Source of the DNA: Candidatus Methylomirabilales bacterium
GTDB lineage: Bacteria; Methylomirabilota; Methylomirabilia; Methylomirabilales; 2-02-FULL-66-22
Assembly (NCBI GenBank): GCA_041946635.1
Contig: JBHGAX010000001.1
Span: 1-50,558, forward strand
Length of the DNA stretch: 50,558 nucleotides
Direction: 5' to 3'
Shown in pieces: positions 24,280 through 38,407 of this stretch. Position 1 is the first letter of the stretch, and every line of letters begins with the position of its first letter. The notes under the pieces are model-generated. The model was given only the letters and a program-made list of their open reading frames with translations. It made no database searches and was not told the origin of the DNA. Position numbers and translations under genes: made by a program.

Positions 24280-24468
24280 ATGACCACCGGCAGCCAGCTC
24301 ATGGCCATTACCCTGCACCGCATCCCGCGCAAGGCGGTCTGCGGGGTGGTAATACTGCTCCAGCAGGAGGACGCCTCCTGGGCTGGCACCTGCAGCAAGT
24401 GCGGGGGCGAGTTCCGGATGGAGCGCGACCCCAAGTTCGAGACGCAGGTGCGGGCGATGCGGAACTGA
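24280..24468 (+). CDS. Hypothetical 62-aa protein with CxxC
   Basis: This is the last 62 codons of an otherwise spurious 716-aa ORF (...GTCSKCGGEFRMERDPKFETQVRAMRN). The SD is weak and coding status is uncertain. Confidence 0.3.
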   Translation: MTTGSQLMAITLHRIPRKAVCGVVILLQQEDASWAGTCSKCGGEFRMERDPKFETQVRAMRN

Positions 24469-24539
24469 CGGCCGGCGCCCGGGCCGCCGTGGCGCCGGGC
24501 GACATCCGAGCGCGACAAAAGCAGAGGAAAGGAGCGACC

Positions 24540-25046
24540 ATGCCGCAGAGGAGCAGGGCCAAGGGCACGCGCCGGGAAGGCGGGTTCGGCGCGTACCGGC
24601 AGCAGTTCCAGGCGATGCTGGACAGCATCCGGCGCGAGATCGCCGCGCGGGAGAGCGAGCTGTCCGAGCTGAAGGCGCAGTACGACCGCGTGGCCGGCGT
24701 GCTGGGCGGCGGGGCGCAGGCATCCCGGCCCGCGTCCGCGGCCGCTCCGCGACGGGGCCGCCGGCGGCGGGCGAAGGCGCTGGACTGGAAGCAGGTCTAT
24801 GCGTCGCTGCCGGCCCGCTTCGACCTCGACACGCTGAGTCGCCACCCGAGCGCCGGCAAGCGCTCCAAGCCCCACCTCTACGCCATCATCTCGCGGTGGA
24901 AGAAGGAGAAGAAGATCGCCAAGGACGCCGCGGGCGGCTACCGCAAAGTCGAGGCGGGCGCCAAGGCGAAGCCGGGCCCGCGGCCCAAGGCGTCCAAGCC
25001 GCCCGCCAAGGCGGCCGCGGCCAAGCAGGAGTCCCCGACAGCCTGA
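24540..25046 (+). CDS. Hypothetical protein with coiled-coil N-terminus and Lys/Ala/Pro-rich histone-H1-like tail
   Basis: Strong SD (AGGAAAGGAG). Contains IRREIAARESELSELKAQYDRV, and the C-terminus reads KVEAGAKAKPGPRPKASKPPAKAAAAKQ. Confidence 0.6.
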   Translation: MPQRSRAKGTRREGGFGAYRQQFQAMLDSIRREIAARESELSELKAQYDRVAGVLGGGAQASRPASAAAPRRGRRRRAKALDWKQVYASLPARFDLDTLSRHPSAGKRSKPHLYAIISRWKKEKKIAKDAAGGYRKVEAGAKAKPGPRPKASKPPAKAAAAKQESPTA

Positions 25047-25071
25047 TCACGGCACTGCCCGAGCGAGAGCC

Positions 25072-25101
25072 GGGGGGCACCCAGGAAGGTGGGCGCCCCC
25101 C
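25072..25101. terminator. Hairpin between convergent genes (candidate bidirectional terminator)
   Basis: ggggggcaccca / tgggcgcccccc (12 bp with one mismatch), loop ggaagg, then gccgtctttgg. Confidence 0.5.
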
Positions 25102-25117
25102 GCCGTCTTTGGCGGGA

Positions 25118-25396
25118 TCAGGCGATCCGGAAGCGCTGCGCCTCCAGGTGCTCGTTCTTGCAGCGCGGGCAGCGGGACGGATCCGAAAAGCGGGTCCGGT
25201 CCTTGAACCGGAAGCCACACTCCCCGCACACCGGCGCCCGGATCTCGATGCGGCGCGGCGCCACCGACCGAGCGATGTGCTCCAGGTCGTCCACGATCAG
25301 CCGGCGGGGCACGAGGTAGCGCGCGGCCAGCTCGTCCAGCGTCCAGCTTCGCTCGGCGAGGAGCCGGCGGATCTCCTGTCGGCGCGTCTCCTCCAT
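25118..25396 (-). CDS. Transcriptional regulator, HTH fused to a Zn-ribbon (COG3357-like)
   Basis: A 92-aa protein. The N-terminal wHTH-like segment is RRQEIRRLLAERSWTLDELAARY and the C-terminus is CGECGFRF...CPRCKN. It is the last gene of the GRE cluster. Confidence 0.7.
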   Translation of the reverse strand: MEETRRQEIRRLLAERSWTLDELAARYLVPRRLIVDDLEHIARSVAPRRIEIRAPVCGECGFRFKDRTRFSDPSRCPRCKNEHLEAQRFRIA

Positions 25397-25418
25397 CCCG
25401 CCCCCACGGAAAGAACGT

Positions 25419-25497
25419 GCACCGCCAGGACGCCCAGGCCGCCAGGAAGAAAGGCGGTCTTGGCGAACCTCGGCGCTCTTGGCGCCCTCGGCGGTGC
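25419..25497. repeat. CGCCAGG/CTTGGCG-type repeat hairpin
   Basis: The outer stem is gcaccgcc / ggcggtgc. The arms are made of cgccagga-like and ggcg(n)cttgg-like units. It shares an identical 19-mer with 29863-29881 and a 14-mer with 35177-35190. Confidence 0.75.
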
Positions 25498-25505
25498 AGG
25501 CTTGT

Positions 25506-26411
25506 CTACGCCTTCCGCTCGCCGCCCACCCGCACGCCGGTCCACTCCTCCCAGAGCGTGATCAGGACCGGCTGGGCCTGGGGGCCCTTGCCCTGCGCCT
25601 TCGCCATGCGGAACAGCTCGTGGGCCAGCGCCGTGACCGGCACCGGCACGTCCGCGCTCCGCGCCATGTTCAGGGCGTAGCCGACGTCCTTGGTCATGAT
25701 GTCCACCGAGCCGCCCGGCACGAAGTTGCGCGACAGGAGCCGCGGCACGGTCTCCTCCATCACCCGCGAGCCGGCCCAGCCGCCCTTGATGGCCTCGTGC
25801 AGGGTCGCGGGATCCAGGCCGACCTTGGCGGCCAGCGCCCACGCCTCGCAGACCGCGGCGAAGTTCGCCGCCACGATCATGTTGTTGACCAGCTTGGTCG
25901 CCTGCCCCATCCCGCTGCCGCCCATGTGCACCACGGAACGGCCCAGTCGCGCCAGGACCGGCTGCACTCGGGCAAAGCCGCCGGGATCGCCGCCCACCAT
26001 GATGGAGAGGCTGGCCTCGATGGCCCCCTGCTCCCCCCCGCTCACCGGCGCGTCCAGGAAGGTGATCCGCCGCGCCGCCGCGGCCGCCGCGCACTCCTGC
26101 GCCACCTTGGCCTCGGTGGTGCTGAGGTCCGCGATGAGCGTGCCGGACCGCATGACCGCCAGGAGCCCGTCCGCCCCCAGCACCGCCTGGCGCACGATGT
26201 CGCCCGTGGGCAGCGAGAGCAGCACGATCTCCGCCGTCCGGGCCGCCTCGGCCGCGCTGGCCGCCCGCTTGCCGCCCGCGGCCACGAAGCGCTCCAGGCG
26301 CGGGGGATCGGTGTCGAAGCCGCTCACCTGGTAGCCGGCCTGCACCAGGTTGCGGGCCATGGGTCCGCCCATCACGCCCAGCCCCAGGAAGCCCAGCGCC
26401 ATGTCAGACAT
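25506..26411 (-). CDS. NAD(P)-dependent dehydrogenase of the 3-hydroxyisobutyrate dehydrogenase (HIBADH/tartronate-semialdehyde reductase) family
   Basis: The start is taken at ATG 26411 (AGGAGGAG SD). N-terminal GFLGLGVMGGPMARNL, and a C-terminal 6PGDH-like helical domain. Confidence 0.85.
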   Translation of the reverse strand: MSDMALGFLGLGVMGGPMARNLVQAGYQVSGFDTDPPRLERFVAAGGKRAASAAEAARTAEIVLLSLPTGDIVRQAVLGADGLLAVMRSGTLIADLSTTEAKVAQECAAAAAARRITFLDAPVSGGEQGAIEASLSIMVGGDPGGFARVQPVLARLGRSVVHMGGSGMGQATKLVNNMIVAANFAAVCEAWALAAKVGLDPATLHEAIKGGWAGSRVMEETVPRLLSRNFVPGGSVDIMTKDVGYALNMARSADVPVPVTALAHELFRMAKAQGKGPQAQPVLITLWEEWTGVRVGGERKA

Positions 26412-26524
26412 CGTCTCCTCCTTGCACCGCACCTTGCACCACGAAGGTCATGAAGGGGTTCGGAAGGACCCGGGTGGTGGCGAGGAAGCAGACCACATCC
26501 CGGCGGCGGGGTCAAGCCGAATGG

Positions 26525-27445
26525 CTAGCCTCCCACCGTGACCCGCACGCCCGTCTCCGCCGCGGCGCCGCTCAGCACCTCGATCCGCGCCGGCGCGAGC
26601 GGAGCGGCATCGGCGAAGGCGTAGGCCCGGCCGAGCCGGGCGTACTTGGAGTGCCCGAAGCGGTGATAGGGCAGGAGGCACACCTCGCTCACGCCCGCCG
26701 CGCGGGCCCGGCGCGCGAGTGCCGAGACGACCTCGGGCTCGTCGTTGAAGCCCGGGATGAGCGGCATCCGCACCACGACCCGCGCGCAGGCCGCCAGCCG
26801 GTCGAGGTTGCCCAGGATGCGGGCGAGCTCTCCCCCGGTCGCGGCCCGATGCCGCTCGGCGTCCACGTGCTTCAGGTCGAAGAGGAACAGGTCGGTCCAG
26901 GGCCGCACGGCCTCGCACGCCGCCCACGGCGCCTGGCCGCAGGTCTCCACCGCGGTGTGCAGGCCGCGCGTCCGGCAGAGCCGCAGGAGTGCGGCGGCGA
27001 AGTCCGGCTGGGCCAGCGGCTCGCCGCCGCCCAGCGTGACGCCCCCGCCCGAGTTCCGGAAGAAGGGCTCGTCCCGGAGCACCTCCGCCAGCACCTCCCC
27101 CGCCGCGACCCGGCGGCCGGCCATGGCGCGCGCCTCGGCGTAACAGGCCTCGGCACAGCGCCCGCAGCCGCGGCAGCGTCCGGCATCCTGGGCCATGCCC
27201 GCCTCCGTCCGGTGCGCCGCCCCGGTGGGGCAGGCGGCCAGGCAGGCCCCGCAGCCGATGCACCGCCCCGCCTCGAGCATCAGCTCGGGCTCGAAGCGCT
27301 GCGATTCGGGATTGGCGCACCAGGGACAGCGCAGGGGACAGCCCTTCAGGAAGACCAGGGAGCGGATGCCCGGCCCGTCGTGGACCGAGAAGCGCTGCAG
27401 GTCAAAGATGACGCCGGCCACCTCCGCCGCGCCGGCCTGGCTCAC
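26525..27445 (-). CDS. Glycyl-radical enzyme activating enzyme (radical SAM)
   Basis: DGPGIRSLVFLKGCPLRCPWCANP (the CxxxCxxC triad), two ferredoxin-type inserts (CIGCGACLAACP, CRGCGRCAEAC) and GGGVTLGGGEP. The GTG start overlaps the GRE stop (GTGA, 27442-27445). Confidence 0.9.
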   Translation of the reverse strand: MSQAGAAEVAGVIFDLQRFSVHDGPGIRSLVFLKGCPLRCPWCANPESQRFEPELMLEAGRCIGCGACLAACPTGAAHRTEAGMAQDAGRCRGCGRCAEACYAEARAMAGRRVAAGEVLAEVLRDEPFFRNSGGGVTLGGGEPLAQPDFAAALLRLCRTRGLHTAVETCGQAPWAACEAVRPWTDLFLFDLKHVDAERHRAATGGELARILGNLDRLAACARVVVRMPLIPGFNDEPEVVSALARRARAAGVSEVCLLPYHRFGHSKYARLGRAYAFADAAPLAPARIEVLSGAAAETGVRVTVGG

Positions 27446-29799
27446 AGCGAATGCTCCGTCCGGGCGATGATGTCCTCCTGCAGCACGGCATCGATCGTCG
27501 TGAAGAGGACGCTGAACCCCGCCACGCGCACCACCAGGTCGCGGTGCTGCTCGGGATGGACCTGGGCCTCCCGCAGCATGGCGCTGTTCACCACGTTGAA
27601 CTGCACGTGCTGGCCGCCCAGCTGGAAGTAGGTGCGAATGAGGGCGACGAGGTTCGCCAGGCCGGTCTCGCCCGCCACGCTGGCCGGGCTCAGCTTGAGG
27701 TTCAGCAGCGTCCCGTTGGAGGCTTCGCGCTGGTCCAGCTTGGCCGCCGACCGGATGACGGCCGTCGGCCCGCGCCGGTCGCGGCCCTGGGCCGGCGAGA
27801 TCCCGCCGTCCGCCAGGAGCATGCTGGCCGTCCGGCCGTCCGGGGTGGCGGCCACGGCGTCCCGGAAGAGCGCGTGCGCCGAGATGCTCTGGAGCCCCGG
27901 CTCGAACCGGCCGCCCCGCACGTTCCGGAAGGCCTTGAAGCCGCGGAGGATGCGGCGGCCCAGCTCGCGCGCGAGGGCGTCCACCTCGTCCGCGTCGTTG
28001 CCGTACTTGGGCGCCCGGTTCACCAGGAGCTGCCGCAGGGCCTCGCGGCCCTCGAAGTTGCCGGACAGGGCCTCGCGCAGCTCGGCCATGCCGAGGCGGC
28101 CCTCCTCGAAGACCAGCCGCTTCACCGCCATGAGCGCGTCGGCGGCGTTGGCCAGGCCCACGACGTTCGGGGAGGTGTAGTTGTAGACCGCCCCGCCCTC
28201 CTCGTAGCAGCGGCCGCGCGCCAGGCAGTCCTGCACCAGGAGCGACACGAACGGGTTCGGCGCCACGGCTCCGTGCAGGTGGTCCAGCATGTTGATGGAG
28301 GCCACCATGAGCCGGATCGCGTGGTCGAGCTGCCGGTCCAGGGCCGCCTCGAGGTCTGCGTAGCTGGTCAGCGGGTCGCAGATCGCCGGCCCGAGCTGCC
28401 GGCCCGTGAGCGGATCGCGACCGTCGTGGAGGGCCAGCGTGACCAGCTTGCCCAGGTTCAGGAAGCCCGCCGGGTAGTAGCCGTTGGTCTTCCCCGGGGC
28501 CTGGGGCTCGACGCAGCCCACCTCGGCGTAGTCCCGGGCCTCCCGAAGCGGCACGCCCATGTCCAGCAGCACGGGAATGATGGCCTCGTCGTTGAAGAAG
28601 GCCGGCATCCCCAGCCCCTCCCGGGCCAGGTCGGCGGCGGCGCGCAGGAACTCCGGCGGGGCGCCGGGGTGCACGCGCACCGAGAGCGACGGCTGCGGGA
28701 GCCGCGTGCGCCGCGTGGCCTCCAGGCAGAGGTAGGACAGCGCATTCGTCGCGTCGGCCCCCTCGGACGTCTGCCCGCCCAGGATGAGGTTCTGGAACAG
28801 CGGGTAGCCGCCGAAGCCCCGCGAGGCGATGCGGTCGCGCAGCTTCATGACCTGGTTGAACTGGATCCACAGACAGCCCAGCAGCTCCAGCGCGCGCTCG
28901 GGATCCAGGCGCCCCGCCGCCATGTCGGCCGCGTAGAACGGCCAGAGATACTGGTCGAAGCGGCCGGGCGAGATGGAGTGGCCGTTCGATTCGATCTGGA
29001 TGATGAGGTGCAGGAACCAGAATGCCTGCAAGGCTTCCTGGAAGGTCTGCGCGGGCTCGGCCGGCACGCGCCGGCATATTCGCGAAATCTCCACCAGCTC
29101 CGCGCGCCGCCGGCCGTCCGGCTCGGCCTGCGCCTGCTTGTCGGCGAGGTCGGCGTGCCGCCGGGCGAAGCCCACGGCCGCCCGCGCGACCTGGATGGCC
29201 GCCATGAGGAAGTCGCGGACGGGCAGGGCCTCCGGCGCGGTGAGATCCAGCGCCGCCAGCCGGGCCTGCGCTTCGGCCACCAGGCCGTTCAGCCCGCCGC
29301 GCAGGATGCGCTCGTAGTCGGGGGCCAGGTGCCCGGTGCCGCAGCCGAGGCTGGTGAGCAGGAAGAGCAGCTGCTGGTGCGCCTCCAGCGCTTCGGCCGG
29401 CAGGGCGGCCACGGCCCGCTCCAGGAACGACCGTCCCCGCCAGCGCGGCAGGATGGCGTGCAGCCGCTCACGCGTCTCGGCCGGCACGTCGAAGCGGTCG
29501 GCCGCCCGCCGCGGCAGGGAGTCCAGCTCCTCCAGCACCCAGCCCCAGGCGTACTCGGGGAAGACCGGCGCGGCCGAGGGCCGGCTGGCCTGGTGGCCGA
29601 CGATCAGCTCGTCGGGGGCTATGAAGATGCTCTGGCGATCCAGGATGGCGGCCAGGGCGGCGGCCCGCAGGCGCACCGGCGGTAGCGTCCCGGCGTGCGC
29701 CTCATAGACCTCCGTGACGATCTCCGCCCGCTCGTGGCACACCGAGGGCCGGTGGGCCAGGTGCCAGGCACGGAGTCGCGTCGTGCGGTCGCCGCTCAT
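27442..29799 (-). CDS. Glycyl-radical enzyme, PFL2/glycerol-dehydratase-like family, substrate unknown
   Basis: A 785-aa ORF with C-terminal glycyl-radical fingerprint VVRVAGFSVLF and thiyl loop EVGCVEPQAPGK (Cys-x-Glu). Confidence 0.92.
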   Translation of the reverse strand: MSGDRTTRLRAWHLAHRPSVCHERAEIVTEVYEAHAGTLPPVRLRAAALAAILDRQSIFIAPDELIVGHQASRPSAAPVFPEYAWGWVLEELDSLPRRAADRFDVPAETRERLHAILPRWRGRSFLERAVAALPAEALEAHQQLLFLLTSLGCGTGHLAPDYERILRGGLNGLVAEAQARLAALDLTAPEALPVRDFLMAAIQVARAAVGFARRHADLADKQAQAEPDGRRRAELVEISRICRRVPAEPAQTFQEALQAFWFLHLIIQIESNGHSISPGRFDQYLWPFYAADMAAGRLDPERALELLGCLWIQFNQVMKLRDRIASRGFGGYPLFQNLILGGQTSEGADATNALSYLCLEATRRTRLPQPSLSVRVHPGAPPEFLRAAADLAREGLGMPAFFNDEAIIPVLLDMGVPLREARDYAEVGCVEPQAPGKTNGYYPAGFLNLGKLVTLALHDGRDPLTGRQLGPAICDPLTSYADLEAALDRQLDHAIRLMVASINMLDHLHGAVAPNPFVSLLVQDCLARGRCYEEGGAVYNYTSPNVVGLANAADALMAVKRLVFEEGRLGMAELREALSGNFEGREALRQLLVNRAPKYGNDADEVDALARELGRRILRGFKAFRNVRGGRFEPGLQSISAHALFRDAVAATPDGRTASMLLADGGISPAQGRDRRGPTAVIRSAAKLDQREASNGTLLNLKLSPASVAGETGLANLVALIRTYFQLGGQHVQFNVVNSAMLREAQVHPEQHRDLVVRVAGFSVLFTTIDAVLQEDIIARTEHSL

Positions 29800-29820
29800 C
29801 GCCGTTCTCGGTTCAATGTG

Positions 29821-29893
29821 CGAAGCGCCAAGAGCGCCAGGTGTCGGGGAAACCCCTTCGACCCTCGGCGCTCTTGGCGCCTTGGCGGTTCAG
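29821..29893. repeat. CGCCAAG/CTTGGCG-type repeat hairpin between dctP and the GRE gene
   Basis: A perfect 14-bp stem, gcgccaagagcgcc (29825-29838) / ggcgctcttggcgc (29867-29880), with an inner GGGG-AAA-CCCC tip. The 3' tail cttggcggttcag is identical to 35317-35329. Confidence 0.8.
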
Positions 29894-29900
29894 TCTGCTG

Positions 29901-30890
29901 CTACTTCGCGTCGCGCACGGCCTGGATCAGGTCCTTGCCGATCTCGGGCTCGTACTTGGCGATGATGTCCTTCACCGCATCCTGGAAGGGCTTCTTGTCC
30001 TTCACCACGTTCACCTTCACGCCCTTGGCCTTGATCTTCTCCAGGTTCTCGGCCAGCGCCTTCTGGATGTAGTCCAGCTGGTAGTTCTCGGCCTTCTTGC
30101 CGGCGTCGCGCACGGCCTTCTGGATCTCGGGCGAGAAGCTGTCGAACTTCTTCCTGTTGAACACCAGCACGTTGCAGGAGATCGAGTGCTCGTTCAGGGA
30201 GTAAAACTTGATCACATCCACCCAGCCCCAGCTCACCACGCTGGCCGGGTCGTTCTCGCCCGCGTCCACCACGCCCGTCTGCAGCGAGGTGTACAGCTCG
30301 GAGGACGGCATGGGCGTGGGCAGCATGCCCATGTTCTTGAACATGTCGATGTACACCGGGCTCTGCATGCTGCGGATCTTCAGCCCCTTGGCGTCCTCCA
30401 CCTTCTCGATGGGCCGCTTGGTGCTGAAGATGCTGCGCACGCCGGGCAGGATGTAGGACAGGAGCAGCACGCCGTCGTCCTCCACCTGCTTGGCGATGGT
30501 CTCGCCCACCTTGCCCTGCACCACCTTCTTGAAGTGCGGCGCGCCCTCGAACAGGTAGGGCAGGTCGAAGACCTTCGCCTGGGGCGCCCAGCCCAGGATG
30601 TACGTGGTGGCGCCGATGGCCGCGTCCACCGCGCCGCTCTGGGCCATCTGGAACAGCTCCGCCTCGTTGCTGCTCAGCGAGCCGGAGTGGAAGATCTGCA
30701 CCTTCACCTGCCCCTTGGTCGCCTTCTCCACCTCGTCCGCGAAGACCTTGGGGGTCTCGCCCAGGAACCCGCCCTTGGGCGGCTGGCTGGTGGCGAGCTT
30801 CAGCGTCTGCGCGGCCTGCGCCGCCGGGACGGCCGCCAGGCCGGCGATGGCCAGGACGGCCAGCGTGATCACGAGAACTCTGCGAGTCAT
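29901..30890 (-). CDS. dctP: TRAP transporter substrate-binding protein (DctP family)
   Basis: Signal peptide (VLVITLAVLAIAGLAAVPAAQA). DctP-family pattern including the carboxylate-clamp Arg context GLKIRSMQSP. Confidence 0.9.
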   Translation of the reverse strand: MTRRVLVITLAVLAIAGLAAVPAAQAAQTLKLATSQPPKGGFLGETPKVFADEVEKATKGQVKVQIFHSGSLSSNEAELFQMAQSGAVDAAIGATTYILGWAPQAKVFDLPYLFEGAPHFKKVVQGKVGETIAKQVEDDGVLLLSYILPGVRSIFSTKRPIEKVEDAKGLKIRSMQSPVYIDMFKNMGMLPTPMPSSELYTSLQTGVVDAGENDPASVVSWGWVDVIKFYSLNEHSISCNVLVFNRKKFDSFSPEIQKAVRDAGKKAENYQLDYIQKALAENLEKIKAKGVKVNVVKDKKPFQDAVKDIIAKYEPEIGKDLIQAVRDAK

Positions 30891-30970
30891 GGTCTCCTCC
30901 TGCGCGTCATGAGGGCTTGGAACGTCAACGGAAGCCGCCTCTGCGGACGACCACCTCCTCTCCGAAATAC

Positions 30971-31126
30971 GGTTCCGGGTTCGAGGTTCGAGGTTCGAGG
31001 TTGCCCTGAACCGGTCGCCTGTCTCTTTGCGCTCCAGGTCGAGACTCGAGTACGTATCCCCCGCAACGCCGGGGGCCTACCCAGGTGCCGGGTCCCTTGA
31101 ACGTCGAACCTTGAACCCGGAACCCC
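30971..31126. repeat. GGTTCGA heptad inverted repeat in the 243-bp dctM-dctP spacer
   Basis: The left arm is ggttccgggttcgaggttcgaggttcgaggttgccctgaacc (30971-31012). The right arm is cccttgaacgtcgaaccttgaacccggaacccc (31094-31126). The arms are largely complementary and separated by 81 nt. Confidence 0.75.
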
Positions 31127-31133
31127 TTTACGG

Positions 31134-32426
31134 TCACCCTCCCAGCATCAGGTCCGGCAGGATCGTGATGACGCCGGGGAAGTAGGCAATCAGGATGAGG
31201 ATCGCGGTCATGGCCGCCAGGAAGGGCATCAGCTCCCAGGTGAAGCGCTCGACCTGGATGTCCCCGATGGCCGCCCCGACCCAGAGGCAGGAGCCGCAGG
31301 GCGGGCTGGCCAGCCCCATGGCCGAGGCGAAGACCATGGTCACCATGAACGCGATCACGGGGATGCCCAGCTGCTCCGCCAGCGGCAGGAAGATGGGCGT
31401 GAAGATCAGGATGATGGGGATGGCGTCCAGGAACGTCCCGATGGCCAGGTAGGTGAAGAGCATGCCGGCTATGATGATCAGCTTGCTGCTGGTGTAGGAC
31501 GTGATGAACTCGGCGATGGCGTCCGGCACCTGGGCGATGGCCAGGATCCAGCCGAAGATGACCGACGCGCCCACCGCGAACATCACCGTCGAGGTACGGG
31601 TGCAGACGCTCACGGAGCTCTTGTAGATGTCCCGGAGCGGCGGGAAGCCGCGCATCATGATGGGGCCCACGATCAGGGCGTAGACGATCGAGATGTTGGC
31701 CGCCTCGGTCGGCGTGACGATGCCGCTCAGGATGCCGCCCATCAGCACCACGGGAATGCCCAGGGCCGGCACCCCCTGCCAGAGGGCCACCCCGCGCTCC
31801 GTCCAGGTCAGCCTGGGCTGCTTCGGGAAGTTGTACTTGATGCCGAAGTAGGTGCTCACGGCGAGGAGCGACAGGCCGGCCAGCACGCCCGGGATGACGC
31901 CGCCCAGGAGCAGCGCGGCCACGGAGCTGGACGAGACCAGCGCGGCCACCACCATCAGGTTGCTGGGCGGGATGATCACGCCGATGGTGGAGGCGACCAC
32001 CGTCAGCGCCGTGGCGTAGCCGCGGCTGTAGCCCTGCTTCACCATGGCGGGGATGAGCACGGTGCCCACGGCCGAGGTGTCGGCGACGGCCGCGCCGGTG
32101 ATGCCGGCGAAGAACATGCTCACCATGATGGTGATGTGGGACAGGGCGCCCCGGATGTGGCCGACCATCGCGTTCGCCACCCGGATCAGGCGGTCGAAGA
32201 GCGTGGTCATGGACATCAGGTCGCCCGCCAGGACGAAGAACGGGATGCAGAGCAGGATGTAGTTGTCCGCGCCCCCGAAGAGCCGCTGCGGCACGATGAT
32301 CGTGGGGATCTCCGCGTGCAGGAACTTGATGGTGATGTAGGCCGTGATGATCATGGAGTGCGCCACCGGGATCCCCATGAACATCAGGAGCAGGAAGAGC
32401 AGCAGGAGGACGGTTCCGCTCAGCAT
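31134..32426 (-). CDS. dctM: TRAP transporter large permease (DctM)
   Basis: Start at ATG 32426 (GAGGAG SD). A 430-aa polytopic protein beginning MLSGTVLLLLFLLLMFMGIPVAHS. The upstream part of ORF 31134-32990 is read-through across dctQ in another frame. Confidence 0.9.
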   Translation of the reverse strand: MLSGTVLLLLFLLLMFMGIPVAHSMIITAYITIKFLHAEIPTIIVPQRLFGGADNYILLCIPFFVLAGDLMSMTTLFDRLIRVANAMVGHIRGALSHITIMVSMFFAGITGAAVADTSAVGTVLIPAMVKQGYSRGYATALTVVASTIGVIIPPSNLMVVAALVSSSSVAALLLGGVIPGVLAGLSLLAVSTYFGIKYNFPKQPRLTWTERGVALWQGVPALGIPVVLMGGILSGIVTPTEAANISIVYALIVGPIMMRGFPPLRDIYKSSVSVCTRTSTVMFAVGASVIFGWILAIAQVPDAIAEFITSYTSSKLIIIAGMLFTYLAIGTFLDAIPIILIFTPIFLPLAEQLGIPVIAFMVTMVFASAMGLASPPCGSCLWVGAAIGDIQVERFTWELMPFLAAMTAILILIAYFPGVITILPDLMLGG

Positions 32427-32440
32427 GCGCCACTCCTCGA

Positions 32441-32926
32441 TCAGGCAAAGGGGTTGTCCGGCCGCTCGCGCAGCACGGTGGCGATGTTCCGCGCCCGGTT
32501 CAGCAGGCCGAAGACGATGGCCACGGGCAGGCCCCAGTACACCCAGTCGAGGCGGAGCTGGAGCACGGTCGAGATCATGCGCTTCCCCATCTCGACGAAG
32601 CGCAGGCTGTCCGCCAGGAGCCACAGGAAGAAGGTGAAGATGAGCACCTCGCCCACCACCCAGAAGGCGTACCGCAGCCGGCGCGGCGCCTGCTCCACGA
32701 AGTAGCTGACCCGGAAGTGCTCCTTCTGGCGCTCGGCCAGCGCGTTGGCCAGGAAGATCAGCCACAGGAAGGCGAAGCGCGCGAACTCCTCGGTCCAGGG
32801 CAGCGCGATCTCCAGGATGTAGCGGGCGATCACCTGCACGAAGATCACCACCACCGTGACGTACAGGATGACCAGCGAGGTCACGTCGCAGCACCAGTCG
32901 AATGCCCGAAACGCCGCCTTCACCAT
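32441..32926 (-). CDS. dctQ: TRAP transporter small permease (DctQ)
   Basis: A 161-aa protein with four helices and the typical WTEEFARFAFLWLIFL segment. It lies 14 nt upstream of dctM. Confidence 0.85.
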   Translation of the reverse strand: MVKAAFRAFDWCCDVTSLVILYVTVVVIFVQVIARYILEIALPWTEEFARFAFLWLIFLANALAERQKEHFRVSYFVEQAPRRLRYAFWVVGEVLIFTFFLWLLADSLRFVEMGKRMISTVLQLRLDWVYWGLPVAIVFGLLNRARNIATVLRERPDNPFA

Positions 32927-33138
32927 GCAGGAACCTCCGGAGGCTTGAACGCGGGCCCGCCTGCCCGCGGGCCCATTCTAGCGGGGGCAAGGGCGCCCCC
33001 TCAGCCGCTCGCCCGCATTGTCTGCCTCTTGGTACCGACCGGTAGGCCCAGCCTCCAAGCGGCGTGGGCGCGCCGGCGTGGGGAGGGAGGGGCTCGCCGC
33101 ACCCCGGCGGGGTGGCCGCCCGCAGCGGCCACCCGAGG

Positions 33139-33894
33139 TCAGAGAATGGTGCGGCCCCCGTCCACGGGGATGGCGGCGCCGGTGATGAAGGCGGCGTCGT
33201 CCGAGACGAGGAAGCAGATGGCCTTCGCGACGTCCTCCGGCGTCCCCGCGCGGCCCAGCGGACACACCCTGGCCCAGCCGGCGAACTGGGCGTCCACGTC
33301 GGCCTTGGGGCCCGAGCCCCGCGTCATGGGGCTGTCCACGAAGCCGGGCAGCACGCAGTTCGCGCGGATCGTGGGGGCGCCCTCCAGCGCGGCCATGCGG
33401 GTGAGCTGCATGACGCCCGCCTTGGCCGCGGCGTAGGCGCCGTGCTCCTCCTTCACCCGGATGGACATGCGGGAGGCCATGTGCAGGATGCTCCCGCCGC
33501 CGTGCCGCCGGAGCGCGGCCATCGCCGCCCGGGTGACCAGGAACGCCCCGTGCAGGTTGACCCGGATGACCTCATCCCACTCCGCCTCGGTGGAGTCCTC
33601 GATGCGGCGCGCCCGCAGGATCCCCGCACAGTGCACGACCACGTCGAGGCGCCCGAACAGCCGCTCCGCCGTCTCGAAGGCGGCCTGCACGTCCACGGCC
33701 TGCGTCACGTCGCACTGGCCGATCTCGGCCCGACCCCCGGCGCGGGTGATGGCGTCCGCGGTCCCCTTCGCCTTCTGGGCATCGATGTCCGCGATGAAGA
33801 GGCTGCCACCCCGGCGCGCGAACAGGTGCGCGGTGGCCTGCCCGATCCCCGATCCCCCGCCCGTGATGAGGGCGACTCGTCCCGTGAAGTCCAT
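33139..33894 (-). CDS. Short-chain dehydrogenase/reductase (SDR)
   Basis: TGGGSGIG cofactor motif, NCAG-like HCAG, and catalytic YAAAK. Confidence 0.9.
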   Translation of the reverse strand: MDFTGRVALITGGGSGIGQATAHLFARRGGSLFIADIDAQKAKGTADAITRAGGRAEIGQCDVTQAVDVQAAFETAERLFGRLDVVVHCAGILRARRIEDSTEAEWDEVIRVNLHGAFLVTRAAMAALRRHGGGSILHMASRMSIRVKEEHGAYAAAKAGVMQLTRMAALEGAPTIRANCVLPGFVDSPMTRGSGPKADVDAQFAGWARVCPLGRAGTPEDVAKAICFLVSDDAAFITGAAIPVDGGRTIL

Positions 33895-33932
33895 GGCTTC
33901 TCCTCGGCCTGGTACGATGGAGCGCGTCCCGT

Positions 33933-33988
33933 GGAACGCGTAACAAGAACTTGGGCCGCGCTTGCCGAAGGTTACGTGTTACGTGTTC
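33933..33988. repeat. GTTACG-type heptad hairpin between the ACAD and SDR genes
   Basis: The left arm is ggaacgcgtaacaagaac and the right arm is gttacgtgttacgtgttc. Same family as 3765-3837 and 10879-10960. Confidence 0.7.
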
Positions 33989-34008
33989 GTCCCAGTCGGC
34001 ACTCCGGC

Positions 34009-35151
34009 TCAGTACTCTTTGAGCAACTGCCGCGCGATCACGACCCGCTGGATCTCGCTCGTGCCCTCCCAGATCTCGTAGACCTTCGCCTCGCGGTACA
34101 TGCGCTCGATGGGGAAGTCGGCGCTGTACCCGTAGGCGCCGTGGATCTGGAGCGCCTCGCGCGTCACGGACACGGCGAGCTCGGACGCCAGGAGCTTCGC
34201 CTCCGCCGCCTCGCGGATGATGGAGCGGCCCTGGTCCTTGAGCCAGGCCGCGTGCCGCAGCCGCAGGCGCGCCGCCTCGATGCCCGCGGACATGTCGGCC
34301 AGCTTGAACTGGATGGCCTGGAGGTTGGCCAGCGGGCCGCCGAAGGCCGTCCGCTGCTTCGCGTAGCGCACGGCCTCCTCCATGGCGGCCTGCGCCAGGC
34401 CCACGGCCTGGCAGCCGATGCCGATGCGGCCGGTGTCCAGCGACATCATCGCGCGCTTGAAGCCCTCGCCCTCGCCCCCCAGCAGCGCCTCCTTGGGTAC
34501 CCAGCAGTTGTCGAAGACCACCTCCCCCGTGGCCATGCCCCGCACCCCCATCAGGTGCTCCTTGGAGCCGGTCGAGAACCCGGGCGTGCCCTTCTCCACC
34601 AGGAACAGCGTGATGCCCTTGTGCGCCTTGGCCCGGTCCACGGTGGCGACCACGACCGCCAGGTCGGCGATCATGGCGCAGGTGAGGAAGCGCTTGGCGC
34701 CGTTCAGGACGTAGCCGCCCCGCTCCGGTCGCGCCGTCGTCTGGATGCCGGCCACGTCGGAGCCCGCGCCCGGCTCGGTCTGGGCGATGATGCAGATCTT
34801 CTCCCCGGCGCCCATGGCCGGCAGGTGCTTCTGCTTCTGCGCCTCCGTGCCGTTCTTCAGGATCATGTTCTGCATGAGCGTGCTGAGGAGCTGGATGTCG
34901 GCCACGACCACCGACGCCCGCGCCATCTCCTCCTGGACGATGGCCCAGGAGACGATGTCCATCCCCGCGCCCCCGTACTCCGGCGGGAGCGTCATGCCGA
35001 GGATGCCCAGCTCGGCCATGCGCTTCCAGAGATCCCAGGGAAACTCGTCGGTGCGGTCGATCTCCGCCGCCCGCGGCTTGATCTCCTTCTCCGCGAACTC
35101 CCGCACCATGCCGCGCAGCATCCGCTGCGCCTCCGTCAGCTCAAAGTTCAT
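34009..35151 (-). CDS. Acyl-CoA dehydrogenase
   Basis: Start at ATG 35151 (GGAGG SD): MNFELTEAQRMLRGMVREFAEKEI. The C-terminal catalytic-base context is YEIWEGTSEIQR. Confidence 0.92.
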   Translation of the reverse strand: MNFELTEAQRMLRGMVREFAEKEIKPRAAEIDRTDEFPWDLWKRMAELGILGMTLPPEYGGAGMDIVSWAIVQEEMARASVVVADIQLLSTLMQNMILKNGTEAQKQKHLPAMGAGEKICIIAQTEPGAGSDVAGIQTTARPERGGYVLNGAKRFLTCAMIADLAVVVATVDRAKAHKGITLFLVEKGTPGFSTGSKEHLMGVRGMATGEVVFDNCWVPKEALLGGEGEGFKRAMMSLDTGRIGIGCQAVGLAQAAMEEAVRYAKQRTAFGGPLANLQAIQFKLADMSAGIEAARLRLRHAAWLKDQGRSIIREAAEAKLLASELAVSVTREALQIHGAYGYSADFPIERMYREAKVYEIWEGTSEIQRVVIARQLLKEY

Positions 35152-35172
35152 GGGGACACCTCCAGGCAGTAC

Positions 35173-35329
35173 GTGAACCGCCAGGACGCCACGGACGCCC
35201 ACACCCGAAAAGGCGCAGGGGCGTCGGGGCGCGGCGGCGAAAGAACGATGCAGAAGGCGGGCGCTGTTTCGCCTCGGCGCCTGTTCGCCTCTGCGCCTCT
35301 GCGATGATCCGAGCGTCTTGGCGGTTCAG
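35173..35329. repeat. Nested long imperfect palindrome filling the MaoC-ACAD spacer
   Basis: The outer arms are gtgaaccgccaggacgc (35173-35189) and gcgtcttggcggttcag (35313-35329). The inner arms are aggcgcaggggcgtcggggcgcggcggcgaaag and gtttcgcctcggcgcctgttcgcctctgcgcct. The right end supplies the MaoC TGA stop (35326-35328). Confidence 0.75.
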
Positions 35330-35775
35330 GTTCTCTCTCTCCGCCAGACCATCAGGCCGTGCTCGCCCTCCTGCACCACCTCGCCCCGCTGGTTCAGCAT
35401 GGTCACGTACTCGACGACGATCCCGCGATCCGGCTTCTTGGTCTCGCGCTTGCTCTGGATGCGGACGCGCACCCGGATGGTGTCGCCCATCCGGATGGGG
35501 CCCGTGAACTTGTAGTTCCAGTAGAGCGAGGCCATGTAGCGGGCGCCCGCGAACTCCGGGATGCGGAACTTCAGCCCCTCGGAGACGGCGAGCCCCAGCA
35601 AGCCGTGCGCGATCCGGGTCTGGTAGGGCGTCCCCTTGCAGTACTCCTCGTCGCAGTGCACGGGGCTCCAGTCCCCCGAGAGCGCCGCGAAGCTCACGAT
35701 GTCCGCCTCCGTGATCGTCCGGGCGGGGGACTCGTACTCCTCGCCCACCTGCATGTCCTCGTAGTAGCGCTCCAT
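35326..35775 (-). CDS. MaoC-like (R)-specific enoyl-CoA hydratase/dehydratase
   Basis: A 149-aa hot-dog fold protein with SGDWSPVHCDEEY and IAHGLL. Confidence 0.88.
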   Translation of the reverse strand: MERYYEDMQVGEEYESPARTITEADIVSFAALSGDWSPVHCDEEYCKGTPYQTRIAHGLLGLAVSEGLKFRIPEFAGARYMASLYWNYKFTGPIRMGDTIRVRVRIQSKRETKKPDRGIVVEYVTMLNQRGEVVQEGEHGLMVWRRERT

Positions 35776-35874
35776 TCAAGCTCCCTTGGGCCCTCGGCCG
35801 GAGCGCGGGCGGGATGAATCTCGCCCCCTCACGGCGCCGTGTTTATGCCGCCCGGGTCGTGGGCGCGGATTGCG

Positions 35875-37470
35875 TCAGGCTGCCCAGTCCGCCGCGAGGC
35901 CCATGGGCTCGGGACGGAAGATCCGCGCCTCCATGGGCCGGCAATCGGGCGCCACGCGGAGCGGGAAGCCCACGCGCGGGCGGATCTCCGTGTCCACCTC
36001 GACGCCGGGCGCCACCTCCGCGAGCGTCGGGCCCTGGTCCGTCAGCCGGAAGACGCAGCGCTCCGTGACGTACAGGACCTCCTGGCCCTCCAGCGCGGCC
36101 CGCCGGCCGTTGAAGGTCACGTGCTGGGTCGCCGCCACGAACTTCTGGAACCGCCCCTCCTGCAGGATGCGCAGCCGCCCGTCCTCCGCCCGGACGTCCA
36201 GCCCTCCCGCCGTCAGGGTGCCGCAGAAGATCAGGCGGCGAAGGCCCTGGGACAGGTCGATGAACCCGCCCGCCCCCGCCAGCACGTGCGGCTGCGCCTT
36301 GAGACGGCTCACGTTGGCGTTGCCCCGGGCGTCCACCTCGGCGAAGGCCAGGCAGCCGACGGTGATGCCGCCGCCGTCGATCAGGTCGAACTGCGAGGCG
36401 GAGTCGATGATCGCCTCGGGATTGTGCGAGGCGCCGAAGGCGAAGCCGGTGAGGGGCAGGCCGGCGATGGAGCCCTGCTCCACGGTGAAGCAGAGCGCAT
36501 CCAGCACGCCTTCCTCGAAGGCGATGGTGGGCACCAGGGACGAGATCCCGAAGCCGAGGTTCACGACGTGGCCGGGCTGGAGCTGGCACAGCGCGCGCCG
36601 GGCGATGATCTTCTCCGGGCCGAGCGGCACGGGCTGGATGGGCAGGGTCGCCGAGCGGATCTCGCCGCTGATCGCCGGGTCGTACGCGATGCCGGTGTTC
36701 TGGCGCTGCTCCGGGTCCAGCACCAGGGCGTCCACCAGGATGCCCGGCACCCGGACCATCTGCGGCGCGAGTGTGCCCGCGGCCACCACGCGCTTCACCT
36801 GGGCAATCACGGTCCCGCCGCAGTTGTGCGCCGCCATGGCCTGGGGCAGGACCCCCATGAAGGTCCCCTCGTGCTCCAGCGCGAGGTTGCCGTGCGTGTC
36901 GGCCGTGGTGGCGCGGATCACCGCCGCGTGGATGGGGAAGCTCCGGTAGAAGAGCCACTCCTCGCCGGCCAGCTGGACCACCTCCACCAGGTCGGGCGGG
37001 GTCGCGTCGTTCATCCGCCCGCCCTGGTCGCGCGGGTCCACGAACGTCCCCAGGCCGATCTTGGTGATCACGCCCGGCTTCCGCGCGGCGATGTCCCGGT
37101 GCAGGTGCAGGAGCGGGCCCAGCGGGAAGTTGTAGGCCTCCACCTGGTTGGCGTGGATCATCGCGTAGATCTTGGGCGACGGCTTGGAGGCGGGGCCGTT
37201 GACGTACGAACCGCCCACCAGCCGCTTCAGGAGGCCGGGATGCGCCAGGTGATCCAGGCCCACCGTGCCGAAGGAATCCCCGACGGCCAGGGGGAAGACC
37301 ACCGTCAGCCCGTGCGGCTCCCCGGAGGCCAGGAACCGGCCGCCGATCGCGGCCAGCACCTTGTCGGGCACGAGCTGCGCGGCGGAGCTGCTCACCGTCA
37401 CGGTTGCCCCGCTCGGGATCAGCCGGGCGGCTTCCTCCGGTGTGAGGATCGGTTTCACGCGCCTGTCCAC
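35875..37470 (-). CDS. Family-I acyl-CoA:carboxylate CoA-transferase (YdiF/propionate CoA-transferase-like)
   Basis: A 531-aa fused alpha/beta CoA-transferase. GTG start with AAGGAG SD. It is the first gene of the co-directional cluster. Confidence 0.88.
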   Translation of the reverse strand: MDRRVKPILTPEEAARLIPSGATVTVSSSAAQLVPDKVLAAIGGRFLASGEPHGLTVVFPLAVGDSFGTVGLDHLAHPGLLKRLVGGSYVNGPASKPSPKIYAMIHANQVEAYNFPLGPLLHLHRDIAARKPGVITKIGLGTFVDPRDQGGRMNDATPPDLVEVVQLAGEEWLFYRSFPIHAAVIRATTADTHGNLALEHEGTFMGVLPQAMAAHNCGGTVIAQVKRVVAAGTLAPQMVRVPGILVDALVLDPEQRQNTGIAYDPAISGEIRSATLPIQPVPLGPEKIIARRALCQLQPGHVVNLGFGISSLVPTIAFEEGVLDALCFTVEQGSIAGLPLTGFAFGASHNPEAIIDSASQFDLIDGGGITVGCLAFAEVDARGNANVSRLKAQPHVLAGAGGFIDLSQGLRRLIFCGTLTAGGLDVRAEDGRLRILQEGRFQKFVAATQHVTFNGRRAALEGQEVLYVTERCVFRLTDQGPTLAEVAPGVEVDTEIRPRVGFPLRVAPDCRPMEARIFRPEPMGLAADWAA

Positions 37471-37576: not shown

Positions 37577-38407
37577 TCAGCCCTTCACCGCGCCCATGCC
37601 CCAGCCGCGGATCAGGAACCGCTGGACGACCAGGAAGAAGAGGATGGCGGGAATGGTGACGAGGACCGCGCCCGACATCAGGAGCCCCCAGTCCACGATG
37701 GTGGATTCGTAGATGTTCTGGAGCCCGACCGGCATGGTCATGAGCAGCGGCTCGTTCAGCAGGATGCGCGCGAACAGGTAGTCGTTCCAGACCACCACGA
37801 ACGCGAACACGGATGTGGCGATGATGCCGGGCAGGGCCTGAGGCAGCACCACGTACACCAGGGACTGGAAACGCGTGGCCCCGTCGATGAAGGCGGCATG
37901 CTCCAGCTCCACGGGGAACGACTGGAAGAAGGCGCGGAGCAGCCACAGCGTGAACGGCAGCGAGATGGAGGTGTAGGCCAGGATGATCCCGAGGTGCGAG
38001 TTCACGAGGCCCGCCTGCTGCAGGAGGATGTAGACGGGGATGATGATCATGATGGGCGCGAACATGTAGGTGAAGAGGGTCATGTTGGCCAGCAGCTCCT
38101 TCCCGGGATAGCGAAACCGGGTGAGGCTGTAGGCGCCCAGGGTGGAGATGACGATGTCCAGCGCCACCGTGACCCCGGCCACGATGATGCTGTTCTTGAA
38201 ATAGACCATGAAGTACGTCTCGCCCACCAGCCGGCGAAAGTTGGCCAGGCTGTAGTTGCCGAAGAGCTGCGGGGGATACGCGAACAGGTCCCCGGCGGGC
38301 TTGAGCGAGGTGTAGAGCATCCAGAGCAGCGGCACCCCGCACAGGAGGAGCAGCGCCGCCGAGCCGGCATACAGCGCGCCCGCGAAGCCCAGTCGCCGCA
38401 GCCCCAT
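37577..38407 (-). CDS. ABC sugar transporter permease (MalG/binding-protein-dependent family)
   Basis: A 276-aa protein with six helices and the EAA-loop region (ELEHAAFIDGATRFQSL). Confidence 0.88.
   Translation of the reverse strand: MGLRRLGFAGALYAGSAALLLLCGVPLLWMLYTSLKPAGDLFAYPPQLFGNYSLANFRRLVGETYFMVYFKNSIIVAGVTVALDIVISTLGAYSLTRFRYPGKELLANMTLFTYMFAPIMIIIPVYILLQQAGLVNSHLGIILAYTSISLPFTLWLLRAFFQSFPVELEHAAFIDGATRFQSLVYVVLPQALPGIIATSVFAFVVVWNDYLFARILLNEPLLMTMPVGLQNIYESTIVDWGLLMSGAVLVTIPAILFFLVVQRFLIRGWGMGAVKG

Follow-up and report, generated by a model that had tools for sequence, protein, structure and literature searches.

A 50,558-nucleotide (nt) stretch of contig JBHGAX010000001.1 (assembly GCA_041946635.1), referred to here as the window, comes from a Candidatus Methylomirabilales bacterium. 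At positions 25118 to 37470 it carries a cluster of 11 minus-strand genes in which a glycyl radical enzyme (GRE) and its activating enzyme (AE) lie together with a tripartite ATP-independent periplasmic (TRAP) transporter and a set of coenzyme A (CoA) genes. From its upstream to its downstream end, the cluster encodes a CoA-transferase, a MaoC-type hydratase, an acyl-CoA dehydrogenase (ACAD), a short-chain dehydrogenase/reductase (SDR), the TRAP components DctQ, DctM and DctP, the GRE, its AE, a HIBADH-family dehydrogenase and a helix-turn-helix (HTH)/Zn-ribbon protein. Pfam and NCBIfam scans of the open reading frames (ORFs) of the window confirmed all 11 genes and their types, at or almost at the coordinates given in a preliminary description of this DNA (Table 1). 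The GC content is ~71%, and the cluster genes are 73-92% identical to those of NC10/Methylomirabilota metagenome-assembled genomes (MAGs); on both counts the bacterium is probably Rokubacteria-like. A scan with the adenylosuccinate synthetase gene filled up with remote matches (50-57% identity) and was uninformative on taxonomy. Upstream of the CoA-transferase gene, the same strand continues with an ABC transporter and then two Zn-dependent alcohol dehydrogenase (Zn-ADH) genes. The window ORFs scanned yielded no thiolase, electron transfer flavoprotein (ETF), microcompartment shell gene or GRE small subunit, and no dehydrogenase for aldehydes or 1,3-propanediol; the earlier view of a thiolase-less gene set is thus borne out.

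The start of dctM was placed at an ATG at 32426, in the frame of ORF 31134-32990, giving a protein of the same length as its homologues. An alternative 507-aa ORF for dctM (30925-32448) was rejected, as it matched no Pfam family. The preliminary description had the genes following each other with short gaps. This holds for dctQ/dctM (14 nt) and GRE/AE (4-nt overlap), which are the only operon-tight junctions. The other gaps are longer: CoA-transferase-MaoC, 99 nt; MaoC-ACAD, 174 nt; ACAD-SDR, 114 nt; SDR-dctQ, 212 nt; dctM-dctP, 243 nt; dctP-GRE, 101 nt; AE-HIBADH, 113 nt; and HIBADH-HTH, 109 nt. The cluster is indeed co-directional. This says little alone, because all 23 confidently called genes between ~22.6 and 50.5 kb, including those for a DEAD-box helicase and a methyltransferase, share the minus strand. 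An uncalled plus-strand ORF at 24399-25046 is a possible exception. It has no Pfam match and a GC content at third codon positions of ~0.81, and it would be convergent with the cluster; on one related contig (that of P0003) an unannotated opposite-strand gene occupies the matching position. The interval that holds this ORF, 23647-25117 (1.47 kb, downstream of the HTH/Zn-ribbon gene), contains no confident gene.

The spacer between dctP and the GRE gene contains a strong hairpin (predicted RNA fold, -52.2 kcal/mol; z = -4.9; 0 of 200 shuffled sequences as stable) without a U-tract. Comparable hairpins were present 3' of dctP in other loci (L002, L084 and L044). The element may stabilize or attenuate the mRNA so as to raise expression of the binding protein. 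A further hairpin was found 3' of the SDR gene. The dctM-dctP spacer (30891-31133) is unusually long for a TRAP operon and holds two short inverted repeats with no Rfam match. A promoter and terminator scan of 24.5-44.4 kb revealed no promoter-like sites and no more terminator-like sites than expected from shuffled sequence, and is uninformative at this high GC content. An Rfam search of the whole window returned a tRNA only, with no riboswitch that might hint at a ligand.

Table 1. Features of the cluster and of the genes directly upstream (window coordinates)
Feature	Coordinates	Strand	Supporting match or property
Fused family-I CoA-transferase, YdiF-like, 531 aa	35875-37470	-	PF01144
MaoC-type (R)-specific enoyl-CoA hydratase/dehydratase, 149 aa	35326-35775	-	PF01575, 80.7 bits
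Short-chain acyl-CoA dehydrogenase, 380 aa	34009-35151	-	Three ACAD domains (Pfam)
Classical SDR, 251 aa	33139-33894	-	PF13561/PF00106
TRAP small membrane subunit DctQ	32441-32926	-	PF04290, 89.9 bits
TRAP large membrane subunit DctM, 430 aa	31134-32426	-	PF06808, 330 bits
TRAP solute-binding protein DctP with signal peptide	29901-30890	-	PF03480, 239 bits
Hairpin in dctP-GRE spacer	29825-29880	-	22-nt arms
Glycyl radical enzyme, 785 aa	27442-29799	-	PF02901, 702 bits; PF01228, 116 bits
GRE-activating radical-SAM enzyme, 306 aa	26525-27445	-	TIGR02494, 347 bits
HIBADH-family (beta-hydroxyacid) dehydrogenase, 301 aa	25506-26411	-	PF03446 and PF14833 (NAD_binding_2/NAD_binding_11)
PF0610-like winged-HTH and Zn-ribbon protein, 92 aa, putative regulator	25118-25396	-	PF21476 and PF23470
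ABC transporter, sugar/polyol type: two permeases and solute-binding protein	37577-41002	-	PF00528 (twice), PF01547
Two Zn-dependent alcohol/polyol dehydrogenases	41092-~43300	-	PF08240 and PF00107

The glycyl radical enzyme and its transporter

Ranking of PDB matches placed the GRE closest to the glycerol dehydratase (GD) of C. butyricum (706 bits, 44% identity), followed by the propanediol dehydratases (PDs) of Raoultella GRM3 (9RCO; 694 bits) and Roseburia (675 bits). CutC, PflD, YbiW and HypD were intermediate (492-594 bits). The C-S lyases HpsG (430 bits), IseG (423 bits) and IslA (403 bits) were the most distant eliminases, and the fumarate-adding enzymes TutD and MasD reached only 305-311 bits (TutD, 305). 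The radical motif RVAGFS aligned with RVAGYS of GD. The Cys-x-Glu loop reported earlier for this single-subunit enzyme was present as GCVEP (Cys429-Val-Glu431), with Cys429 aligned to GD Cys433 and invariant in 110 homologues. His157, invariant in the clade described below, aligned with GD His164, the general acid; Ser275 and Phe335 also were kept. A histidine of the GD His164 type protonates the leaving hydroxyl, and the Cys-x-Glu motif marks GRE 1,2-eliminases (PMC13450708). Because the hydroxyl-protonating histidine is kept and the diol dehydratases outrank CutC and the C-S lyases, C-O cleavage is favored over C-N or C-S cleavage. The activase contains the radical-SAM motif CX3CX2C, as CPLRCPWC, and two ferredoxin-like Cys motifs. 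To judge from these features, the GRE and its activase have everything expected of an active pair and look functional.

Further inspection of the substrate loops revealed that the GRE departs from the diol dehydratases. GD Trp445-His446-Asp447 is replaced by Tyr-Tyr-Pro, so that the W-H-D loop loses its Asp, and GD Tyr640-Pro-Ser-Ser-Ile-Asn645 is replaced by Gln-Ser-Ile-Ser-Ala-His. The loops G-W-H-D-[SA]-A-F-F and G-L-Y-P-x-S-x-N of the diol dehydratases thus read G-Y-Y-P-A-G-F-L and G-L-Q-S-I-S-A-H in the window. The roles of GD Asp447, Tyr339 and Ser642 are our assumption. A clade comparison was made with 110 full-length sequences out of the 120 best database matches to the GRE. The window-type signature, Q-S-I-S-A-H together with G-[YFML]-Y-x-x-G, was carried by 83 of the 110. 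These 83 sequences share Tyr442, Gly445, Gln637, His642, a one-residue Gly insertion at 665 and Gln671 as invariants, and none has Asp at position 443; Tyr442, Gln637, His642 and Gln671 replace the His, Tyr, Asn and Ser of diol dehydratases. Sporomusa and others are the source of the remaining 27 (47-50% identity), which without exception have the motifs G-W-H-D and Y-P-V-S-A-N. By these pocket signatures, the window GRE is in a distinct, fairly large clade beside the diol dehydratases and outside them.

No curated NCBIfam equivalog cut-off was reached by the GRE, which matched at the level of subfamily TIGR01774 only. Its scores against the cut-offs were 613/1100 for HypD, 576/1000 for HpfG, 537/1000 for HpsG, 559/1050 for CutC and 628/1109 for PRK09983. 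An NCBIfam scan of ten related loci for characterized GREs likewise found none at the equivalog threshold. The sulfonate-binding triad of IseG, IslA and HpsG is Arg/Gln/Arg (PMC13450708). Because no characterized GRE turned up among the ten scanned relatives, the triad positions were mapped by residue offset from the PDB match ranges only, with no printed alignment; by this mapping they appear to correspond to Cys153, His157 and Gln637. The eliminases covered by a June 2026 review of GREs are GD, PD, HpfG, HypD, HpyG, HpzG, CutC, IseG/IslA and HpsG, and the isomerases are HplG, YbiW and PflD; none of these acts on a hydroxy-carboxylate other than hydroxyprolines, and whole GRE clades remain without validated function according to the same source (PMC13450708). 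None of the characterized GREs in that review matches the window clade. Among the papers searched, no GRE was described for glycerate, malonate semialdehyde or sugar acids, none in Rokubacteria and none of the window clade. The enzyme therefore retains the orphan status first proposed for it: it has no equivalog, its pocket signature is unlike that of GD and PD, and the June 2026 review offers no match.

The TRAP set is complete, with P, Q and M components present (PF03480, PF04290 and PF06808). The preliminary description had pointed to a carboxylate-clamp Arg in DctP, and this was upheld by alignment: GLKIRSMQS of DctP aligned with GMKFRVMQS of 4X8R and GMKVRVMNN of 4PF8. 4X8R is a glucuronate-bound TRAP binding protein (PMC11668362). 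The closest solved relatives of DctP bound glucuronate (4X8R), galacturonate (4N8Y), pantoate or erythronate, at ~150-170 bits only, and 7BBR, bound to 2-keto-3-deoxygluconate (KDG), was more distant than the uronate binders. The uronate binders scored 170 bits, compared with 117 bits for an isethionate binder and 104 bits for the TRAP receptor 24gh. The neighbors of the TRAP and GRE genes in other phyla include LacI (L041 and L082), a LarA-type 2-hydroxyacid racemase/epimerase (L041, L042 and L080), an aldo-keto reductase, GFO/IDH/MocA, KduI, GntR, RpiB and a D-2-hydroxyacid dehydrogenase. The imported substrate had been proposed to be an organic acid or a sulfonate. Of these, the former is retained in narrower form, as a sugar-acid-like carboxylate; a sulfonate is less likely, given the distance of the C-S lyases, the Cys/His/Gln residues at the offset-mapped triad and the types of neighboring genes.

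CoA genes and the distribution of the two gene sets

The CoA-transferase had E. coli YdiF as its best PDB match (2ahu; 391 bits over residues 7-527). The Glu of its VEQGS motif lies at residue 331, as read from the sequence unaligned. This is close to residue 333, which we take to be the position of the catalytic Glu of YdiF. The MaoC protein carries the hydratase-2-like motif SGDWSPVH, and the SDR has the motifs TGGGSGIG and YAAAK. The best PDB matches of the ACAD were Bcd (5ol2; 375 bits) and short-chain acyl-CoA dehydrogenases, its catalytic Glu is kept in WEGTSEIQ, and its two best NCBIfam matches were the acryloyl-CoA reductase AcrC (460 bits against a cut-off of 640) and 3-sulfinopropanoyl-CoA desulfinase (312 bits against 600). 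Of a beta-oxidation set, the ACAD, the hydratase and a 3-hydroxyacyl-CoA dehydrogenase are plausible; with thiolase absent from the window, the cycle is incomplete. The HIBADH-family protein best matched tartronate semialdehyde reductase, a glycerate-forming enzyme (NF008592, 280 bits against a cut-off of 397; 1vpd, 211 bits), and its relatives include sulfolactaldehyde reductase.

Comparison of gene neighborhoods revealed that dctQ-dctM-dctP-GRE-activase is a core module met with repeatedly in MAGs of Methylomirabilota/NC10, Spirochaetota, Bacillota and Limnochordia, with a sister subclade in Oscillibacter and a cultured host in Marispirochaeta aestuarii (Spirochaetota). It stands alone in L045 and L085 and in several other phyla. 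In Spirochaetota and Bacillota, DctP and the GRE are both ~52-58% identical to the window proteins. Because the two diverge in parallel across phyla, we argue that the ligand of the transporter is the substrate of the GRE. One subclade of GREs (L042 and L080) is neighbored by a LarA-like gene and a URO-D-family gene; L042 also has the Ni chaperones HypA and CobW, and L080 carries an ABC transporter in place of TRAP.

The full 11-gene arrangement was found on five other contigs (L002/L046, L034/L048/L087, L050/L088, L084 and the contig of P0003), all Methylomirabilota-type or unclassified, and because the same order recurs on them the grouping is beyond chance. The two halves of the cluster are thus linked elsewhere, so that the refuting case named in the preliminary description, in which they never are, does not apply. 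The full linkage nevertheless appears, from the genomes compared, to be lineage-restricted and patchy. The idea of a single, indivisible unit did not survive this comparison: the core module occurs alone in several phyla, and the CoA genes occur both without the GRE and without TRAP and GRE together. The backbone CoA-transferase-MaoC-ACAD-SDR-HIBADH-HTH, without TRAP and GRE, was seen in L056 and L061. L047/L086 have TRAP without GRE or activase (DctP 91% identical over the best-aligned segment), with a clean dctP-HIBADH spacer of ~250 nt and no GRE remnant, and L049 and L089 likewise combine CoA genes with TRAP and lack the GRE. Where the GRE is absent, TRAP is thus kept with the CoA genes at 80-91% DctP identity. 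The core module lies between the SDR and HIBADH genes of this separable Methylomirabilota backbone. In a neighbor-joining tree of the CoA-transferase, GRE-bearing loci fell in two subclades; since these have sister loci without the GRE, it seems to have been gained or lost repeatedly at one site.

HIBADH orthologues of 75-80% identity adjoin the CoA genes in GRE-less loci, and HIBADH and HTH/Zn-ribbon genes (75-85% identity) remain with the CoA genes in GRE-less variants. Being kept there when the GRE is absent, the two are backbone members and not GRE partners, and redox trimming by the HIBADH enzyme directly after the GRE, as originally pictured, is not favored by this distribution. In all locus variants in which the HIBADH end is kept, whether or not they have the GRE, the block closes with the HTH/Zn-ribbon gene; L001 has this end as GRE-AE-HIBADH-HTH. 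The position of the SDR gene varies (after the AE in L002, after dctP in L049/L089). Other parts of this island also are variable: LacI, an FrdA-like flavoprotein, a GFO/IDH/MocA oxidoreductase, a second dctP and an ABC transporter. In L055 and L060, orthologues of the window ABC transporter (78-89%) are encoded upstream of the CoA-transferase gene; they are absent from the contig of P0003, where a Zn-ADH pair also stands directly upstream of the CoA-transferase; an alcohol dehydrogenase of 71-77% identity lies upstream in several related loci. In L091, a Spirochaetales MAG (4288-10855), a DctP of 57% identity adjoins a YdiF-like CoA-transferase (48%) together with a D-2-hydroxyacid dehydrogenase, an SDR and a protein of the VOC family. 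No GRE lies within 8 kb of this orthologous TRAP. On gene-neighborhood evidence, L091 is an independent cross-phylum link of the transporter to CoA chemistry.

Several features of the related loci were recorded alongside. In L034/L087, L050/L088 and L084, a tandem second dctP (~80% identical to the window DctP) separates the first copy from the GRE gene. The GRE frame of L034 appears broken, which may reflect long-read assembly errors. An FrdA/TfrA-like flavoprotein (FAD_binding_2 and Succ_DH_flav_C; ~580-610 aa) is encoded in L046 (8212-9948), L056 (7975-9786) and relatives; in several Methylomirabilota loci its gene has no adjacent Fe-S subunit and is accompanied by LacI directly upstream of the CoA-transferase. 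Both the flavoprotein and the LacI regulator are absent from the window.

Farther from the cluster, the window contains tRNA-Lys(TTT) at 13797-13872 and, 1.3 kb downstream, a phage-type integrase gene at 15163-16404, and GC content dips to ~0.68 at 13-16 kb. As read from the DNA, this combination is a classic signature of an integrated element. An AhpC/TSA ORF (23335-23646) covers only profile positions 45-123 of 124 and is N-terminally truncated or frameshifted. The second Zn-ADH ORF (42290-43582) has ~90 codons before its first Pfam-matched residue, and its true start probably lies near 43300. Genes for an aldehyde:ferredoxin oxidoreductase (AFOR_N and AFOR_C; 45986-47701) and a ROK-family protein (47946-48923) lie on the same strand ~8 kb upstream, the former being another oxygen-sensitive, aldehyde-handling enzyme near the cluster.

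Proposed pathway and alternatives

The cluster is composite. We propose that its TRAP transporter imports a hydroxy-carboxylate with a vicinal diol, that the GRE dehydrates it to an oxo-acid, and that the CoA genes process the product. We give this reading a probability of roughly 45%. The imported acid would be sugar-acid-like and probably small (C3-C6). The activase would install a radical on the Gly of RVAGFS, and the resulting Cys429 thiyl radical would take a hydrogen from the carbinol carbon. Glu431 would deprotonate the hydroxyl of that carbon, and His157 would protonate the neighboring hydroxyl, which would leave as water; return of the hydrogen atom would yield the oxo-acid. The oxo-acid, or a 3-hydroxy form of it reduced by the HIBADH or SDR enzyme, would then be activated by CoA transfer and interconverted among 3-oxo-, 3-hydroxy-, enoyl- and acyl-CoA by the SDR, MaoC and ACAD enzymes. 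Finally, the transferase would pass CoA back to the next substrate molecule, and because CoA would be recycled in this way no thiolase would be needed.

Two substrates illustrate the proposal. Glycerate could be converted via malonate semialdehyde, 3-hydroxypropionate, 3-hydroxypropionyl-CoA and acryloyl-CoA to propionyl-CoA, a route that fits every enzyme except the SDR. Equally possible is 2,3-dihydroxybutanoate, converted through acetoacetate to butyryl-CoA, which would fit all four CoA enzymes. A bolder version, which we consider doubtful, is that the GRE is the first radical dehydratase for an acyclic hydroxy-carboxylate, converting a 2,3-dihydroxy (sugar) acid (glycerate, tetronate or deoxy-tetronate) to a 3-oxo-acid, and that the product feeds a thiolase-less, CoA-transferase-cycled reverse beta-oxidation to propionate or butyrate in soil Methylomirabilota (Rokubacteria-like).

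A number of observations weigh against the composite pathway. The 110-sequence comparison revealed no invariant Arg or Lys gained by the clade as an obvious carboxylate binder, and Phe335 and Ile639 are hydrophobic at positions equivalent to what we take to be the methyl pocket of propanediol dehydratase. The SDR is unneeded in the glycerate route. There are no ETF genes for a reductive role of the ACAD and no aldehyde dehydrogenase in the block. Co-transcription remains an assumption because of the gaps of 99-243 nt, the strong dctP-GRE hairpin and the hairpin after the SDR gene. The subclade of L042 and L080 (GREs 60-63% identical) lacks an adjacent activase, and L080 also lacks TRAP. Since both halves also occur separately, they could be neighbors here through an insertion event in a variable island.

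This last point leads to an alternative that we regard as unlikely, namely, that the cluster consists of two unrelated neighboring modules. A mobile cassette of TRAP, GRE and activase genes would have entered a sugar/acid catabolic island that is itself variable. The GRE product would then bypass the CoA genes, which would serve another substrate, delivered for example by the ABC transporter. Such an arrangement is in keeping with the solitary TRAP-GRE-AE modules of L045, L085 and other phyla, the solitary CoA, HIBADH and HTH backbone of L056 and L061, and the scatter of GRE-bearing loci on the CoA-transferase tree; the long, hairpin-containing gaps and the high variability of the region (LacI, FrdA-like flavoprotein, GFO, second dctP and ABC genes) also agree with it. 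Against it stand an insertion point and gene order kept on six contigs and in two CoA-transferase subclades, the continued association of TRAP with the CoA genes in loci that lack the GRE, and the orthologous TRAP that adjoins a YdiF-like transferase in the spirochete locus L091. A sulfonate pathway appears improbable. Here TRAP would import a hydroxy-sulfonate such as dihydroxypropanesulfonate (DHPS) for dehydration or cleavage by the GRE, and 3-sulfopropionate would be activated by the CoA-transferase. The ACAD would next introduce a double bond, and hydration by MaoC would give an alpha-hydroxysulfonate that collapses to sulfite for sulfite respiration. For isethionate and DHPS, the pairing of TRAP with a GRE is an established arrangement, and Methylomirabilota MAGs with dsrAB have been reported in the literature. 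HpfG (576 bits) is among the better NCBIfam matches of the GRE, the desulfinase (312 bits) is the second-best match of the ACAD, and sulfolactaldehyde reductase is a relative of the HIBADH protein. However, these scores are far under their cut-offs (576/1000 and 312/600), the ACAD keeps its catalytic Glu, and C-S lyases are the most distant eliminases, with Cys153/His157/Gln637 at the offset-mapped Arg/Gln/Arg positions and no invariant Arg in replacement. DctP, too, is nearer the uronate binders (170 bits) than the isethionate binder (117 bits) or 24gh (104 bits), and the neighbors in other phyla are of the sugar-acid type, with no sulfite reductase or exporter seen at those loci.

Two further possibilities keep the GRE within familiar chemistry. 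That it is no more than a common B12-independent dehydratase of glycerol or 1,2-propanediol, the transporter being irrelevant, seems very improbable in spite of its best PDB matches and of the retained Cys-x-Glu loop, His157, Ser275 and Phe335. The clade as a whole has other residues in place of the W-H-D and Y-P-x-S-x-N loops, which do not vary in the diol-dehydratase group. An acid-type TRAP adjoins the GRE across phyla, and the window ORFs scanned include no genes for microcompartments or for dehydrogenases of aldehydes or 1,3-propanediol. On these tests of substrate loops and gene context, a canonical diol dehydratase was rejected. We give just as little credence to C-N lyase activity toward a hydroxy-amino acid or betaine (for example carnitine or 4-amino-3-hydroxybutyrate, giving acetoacetate and amine), although the chemistry would parallel that of CutC and the W-H-D loop lacks its Asp. 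Acetoacetate would be taken by the YdiF-like transferase and reduced to butyryl-CoA, a product that fits a 3-oxoacid CoA-transferase, the SDR, MaoC and a Bcd-like ACAD, and a GBBH-like_N gene lies upstream of the cluster. The histidine that protonates a leaving hydroxyl is nonetheless invariant, CutC scores below the diol dehydratases, and regulators and neighbors elsewhere are of the sugar-acid type. GBBH-like_N (DUF971) is, we presume, a widespread small domain, and we count it against this reading.

Returning to the composite pathway, uncharacterized GRE clades are not rare; that of the window is widespread in soil and groundwater lineages. It also is tractable, with a soluble binding protein for ligand screening, a conserved pocket signature and a cultured host in M. 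aestuarii, and the Methylomirabilota CoA genes hint at the fate of the GRE product. Should the substrate prove to be a sugar acid or to resemble glycerate, the GRE would represent a new reaction type in anaerobic carbohydrate-acid degradation. It would also mean that oxygen-sensitive radical enzymes are at work in abundant lineages of soil and groundwater, and would offer a B12-free dehydratase possibly useful for 3-oxo and 3-hydroxy acids. The 3-oxo-acid route, if true, would represent a new way to ferment or to dispose of electrons anaerobically, in a phylum that is not known for GRE chemistry.

Comparison with known systems

GD (1R8W/1R9D) and the PDs (5I2A and 9RCO) share with the window GRE the fold, the Gly-radical motif, the Cys-x-Glu loop, the general-acid His and Ser282, as well as an activase with extra Fe-S motifs. 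Because fold and catalytic motifs are shared with these enzymes, the chemistry of the window GRE is probably a radical 1,2-elimination of water. The window enzyme differs in the pocket, where Tyr640 becomes Gln, Pro641 becomes Ser, Asn645 becomes His, a Gly is inserted at 665 and a Ser becomes Gln671. Unlike GD and PD, it is paired with a TRAP acid transporter rather than with microcompartment or 1,3-propanediol genes. The hosts also differ: those of GD and PD are gut fermenters, whereas those of the window clade are soil and groundwater Methylomirabilota and free-living spirochetes.

The IseG/IslA, HpsG and HpfG systems resemble the cluster in having TRAP beside a GRE eliminase and activase, acting on an anionic substrate with a C1 hydroxyl and a C2 leaving group. 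However, IseG, IslA and HpsG score only 403-430 bits, their Arg/Gln/Arg triad appears by offset mapping to be absent from the window GRE, and no sulfite-handling genes lie near the window cluster. The Bss/Bbs systems likewise combine a GRE with CoA-transferase, ACAD, hydratase and SDR functions. The window GRE differs from theirs in being a single-subunit eliminase type, and it is accompanied by a family-I CoA-transferase and a short-chain ACAD and by no thiolase. BbsEF is a family III CoA-transferase. The Bss/Bbs analogy was ruled out by GRE subunit structure, CoA-transferase family and the missing thiolase.

The CoA genes are most readily set beside CoA routes of the acrylate/3-hydroxypropionate type, which have a YdiF-like fused transferase, an AcrC-like ACAD, a hydratase and a beta-hydroxyacid dehydrogenase in common with them. 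The window differs in having no adjacent ETF genes and in an ACAD that scores 460 bits against the AcrC cut-off of 640. Set against all of these systems, what appears to be new is that the GRE 1,2-eliminases include a further substrate clade, one whose tie to short-chain CoA genes is lineage-specific.

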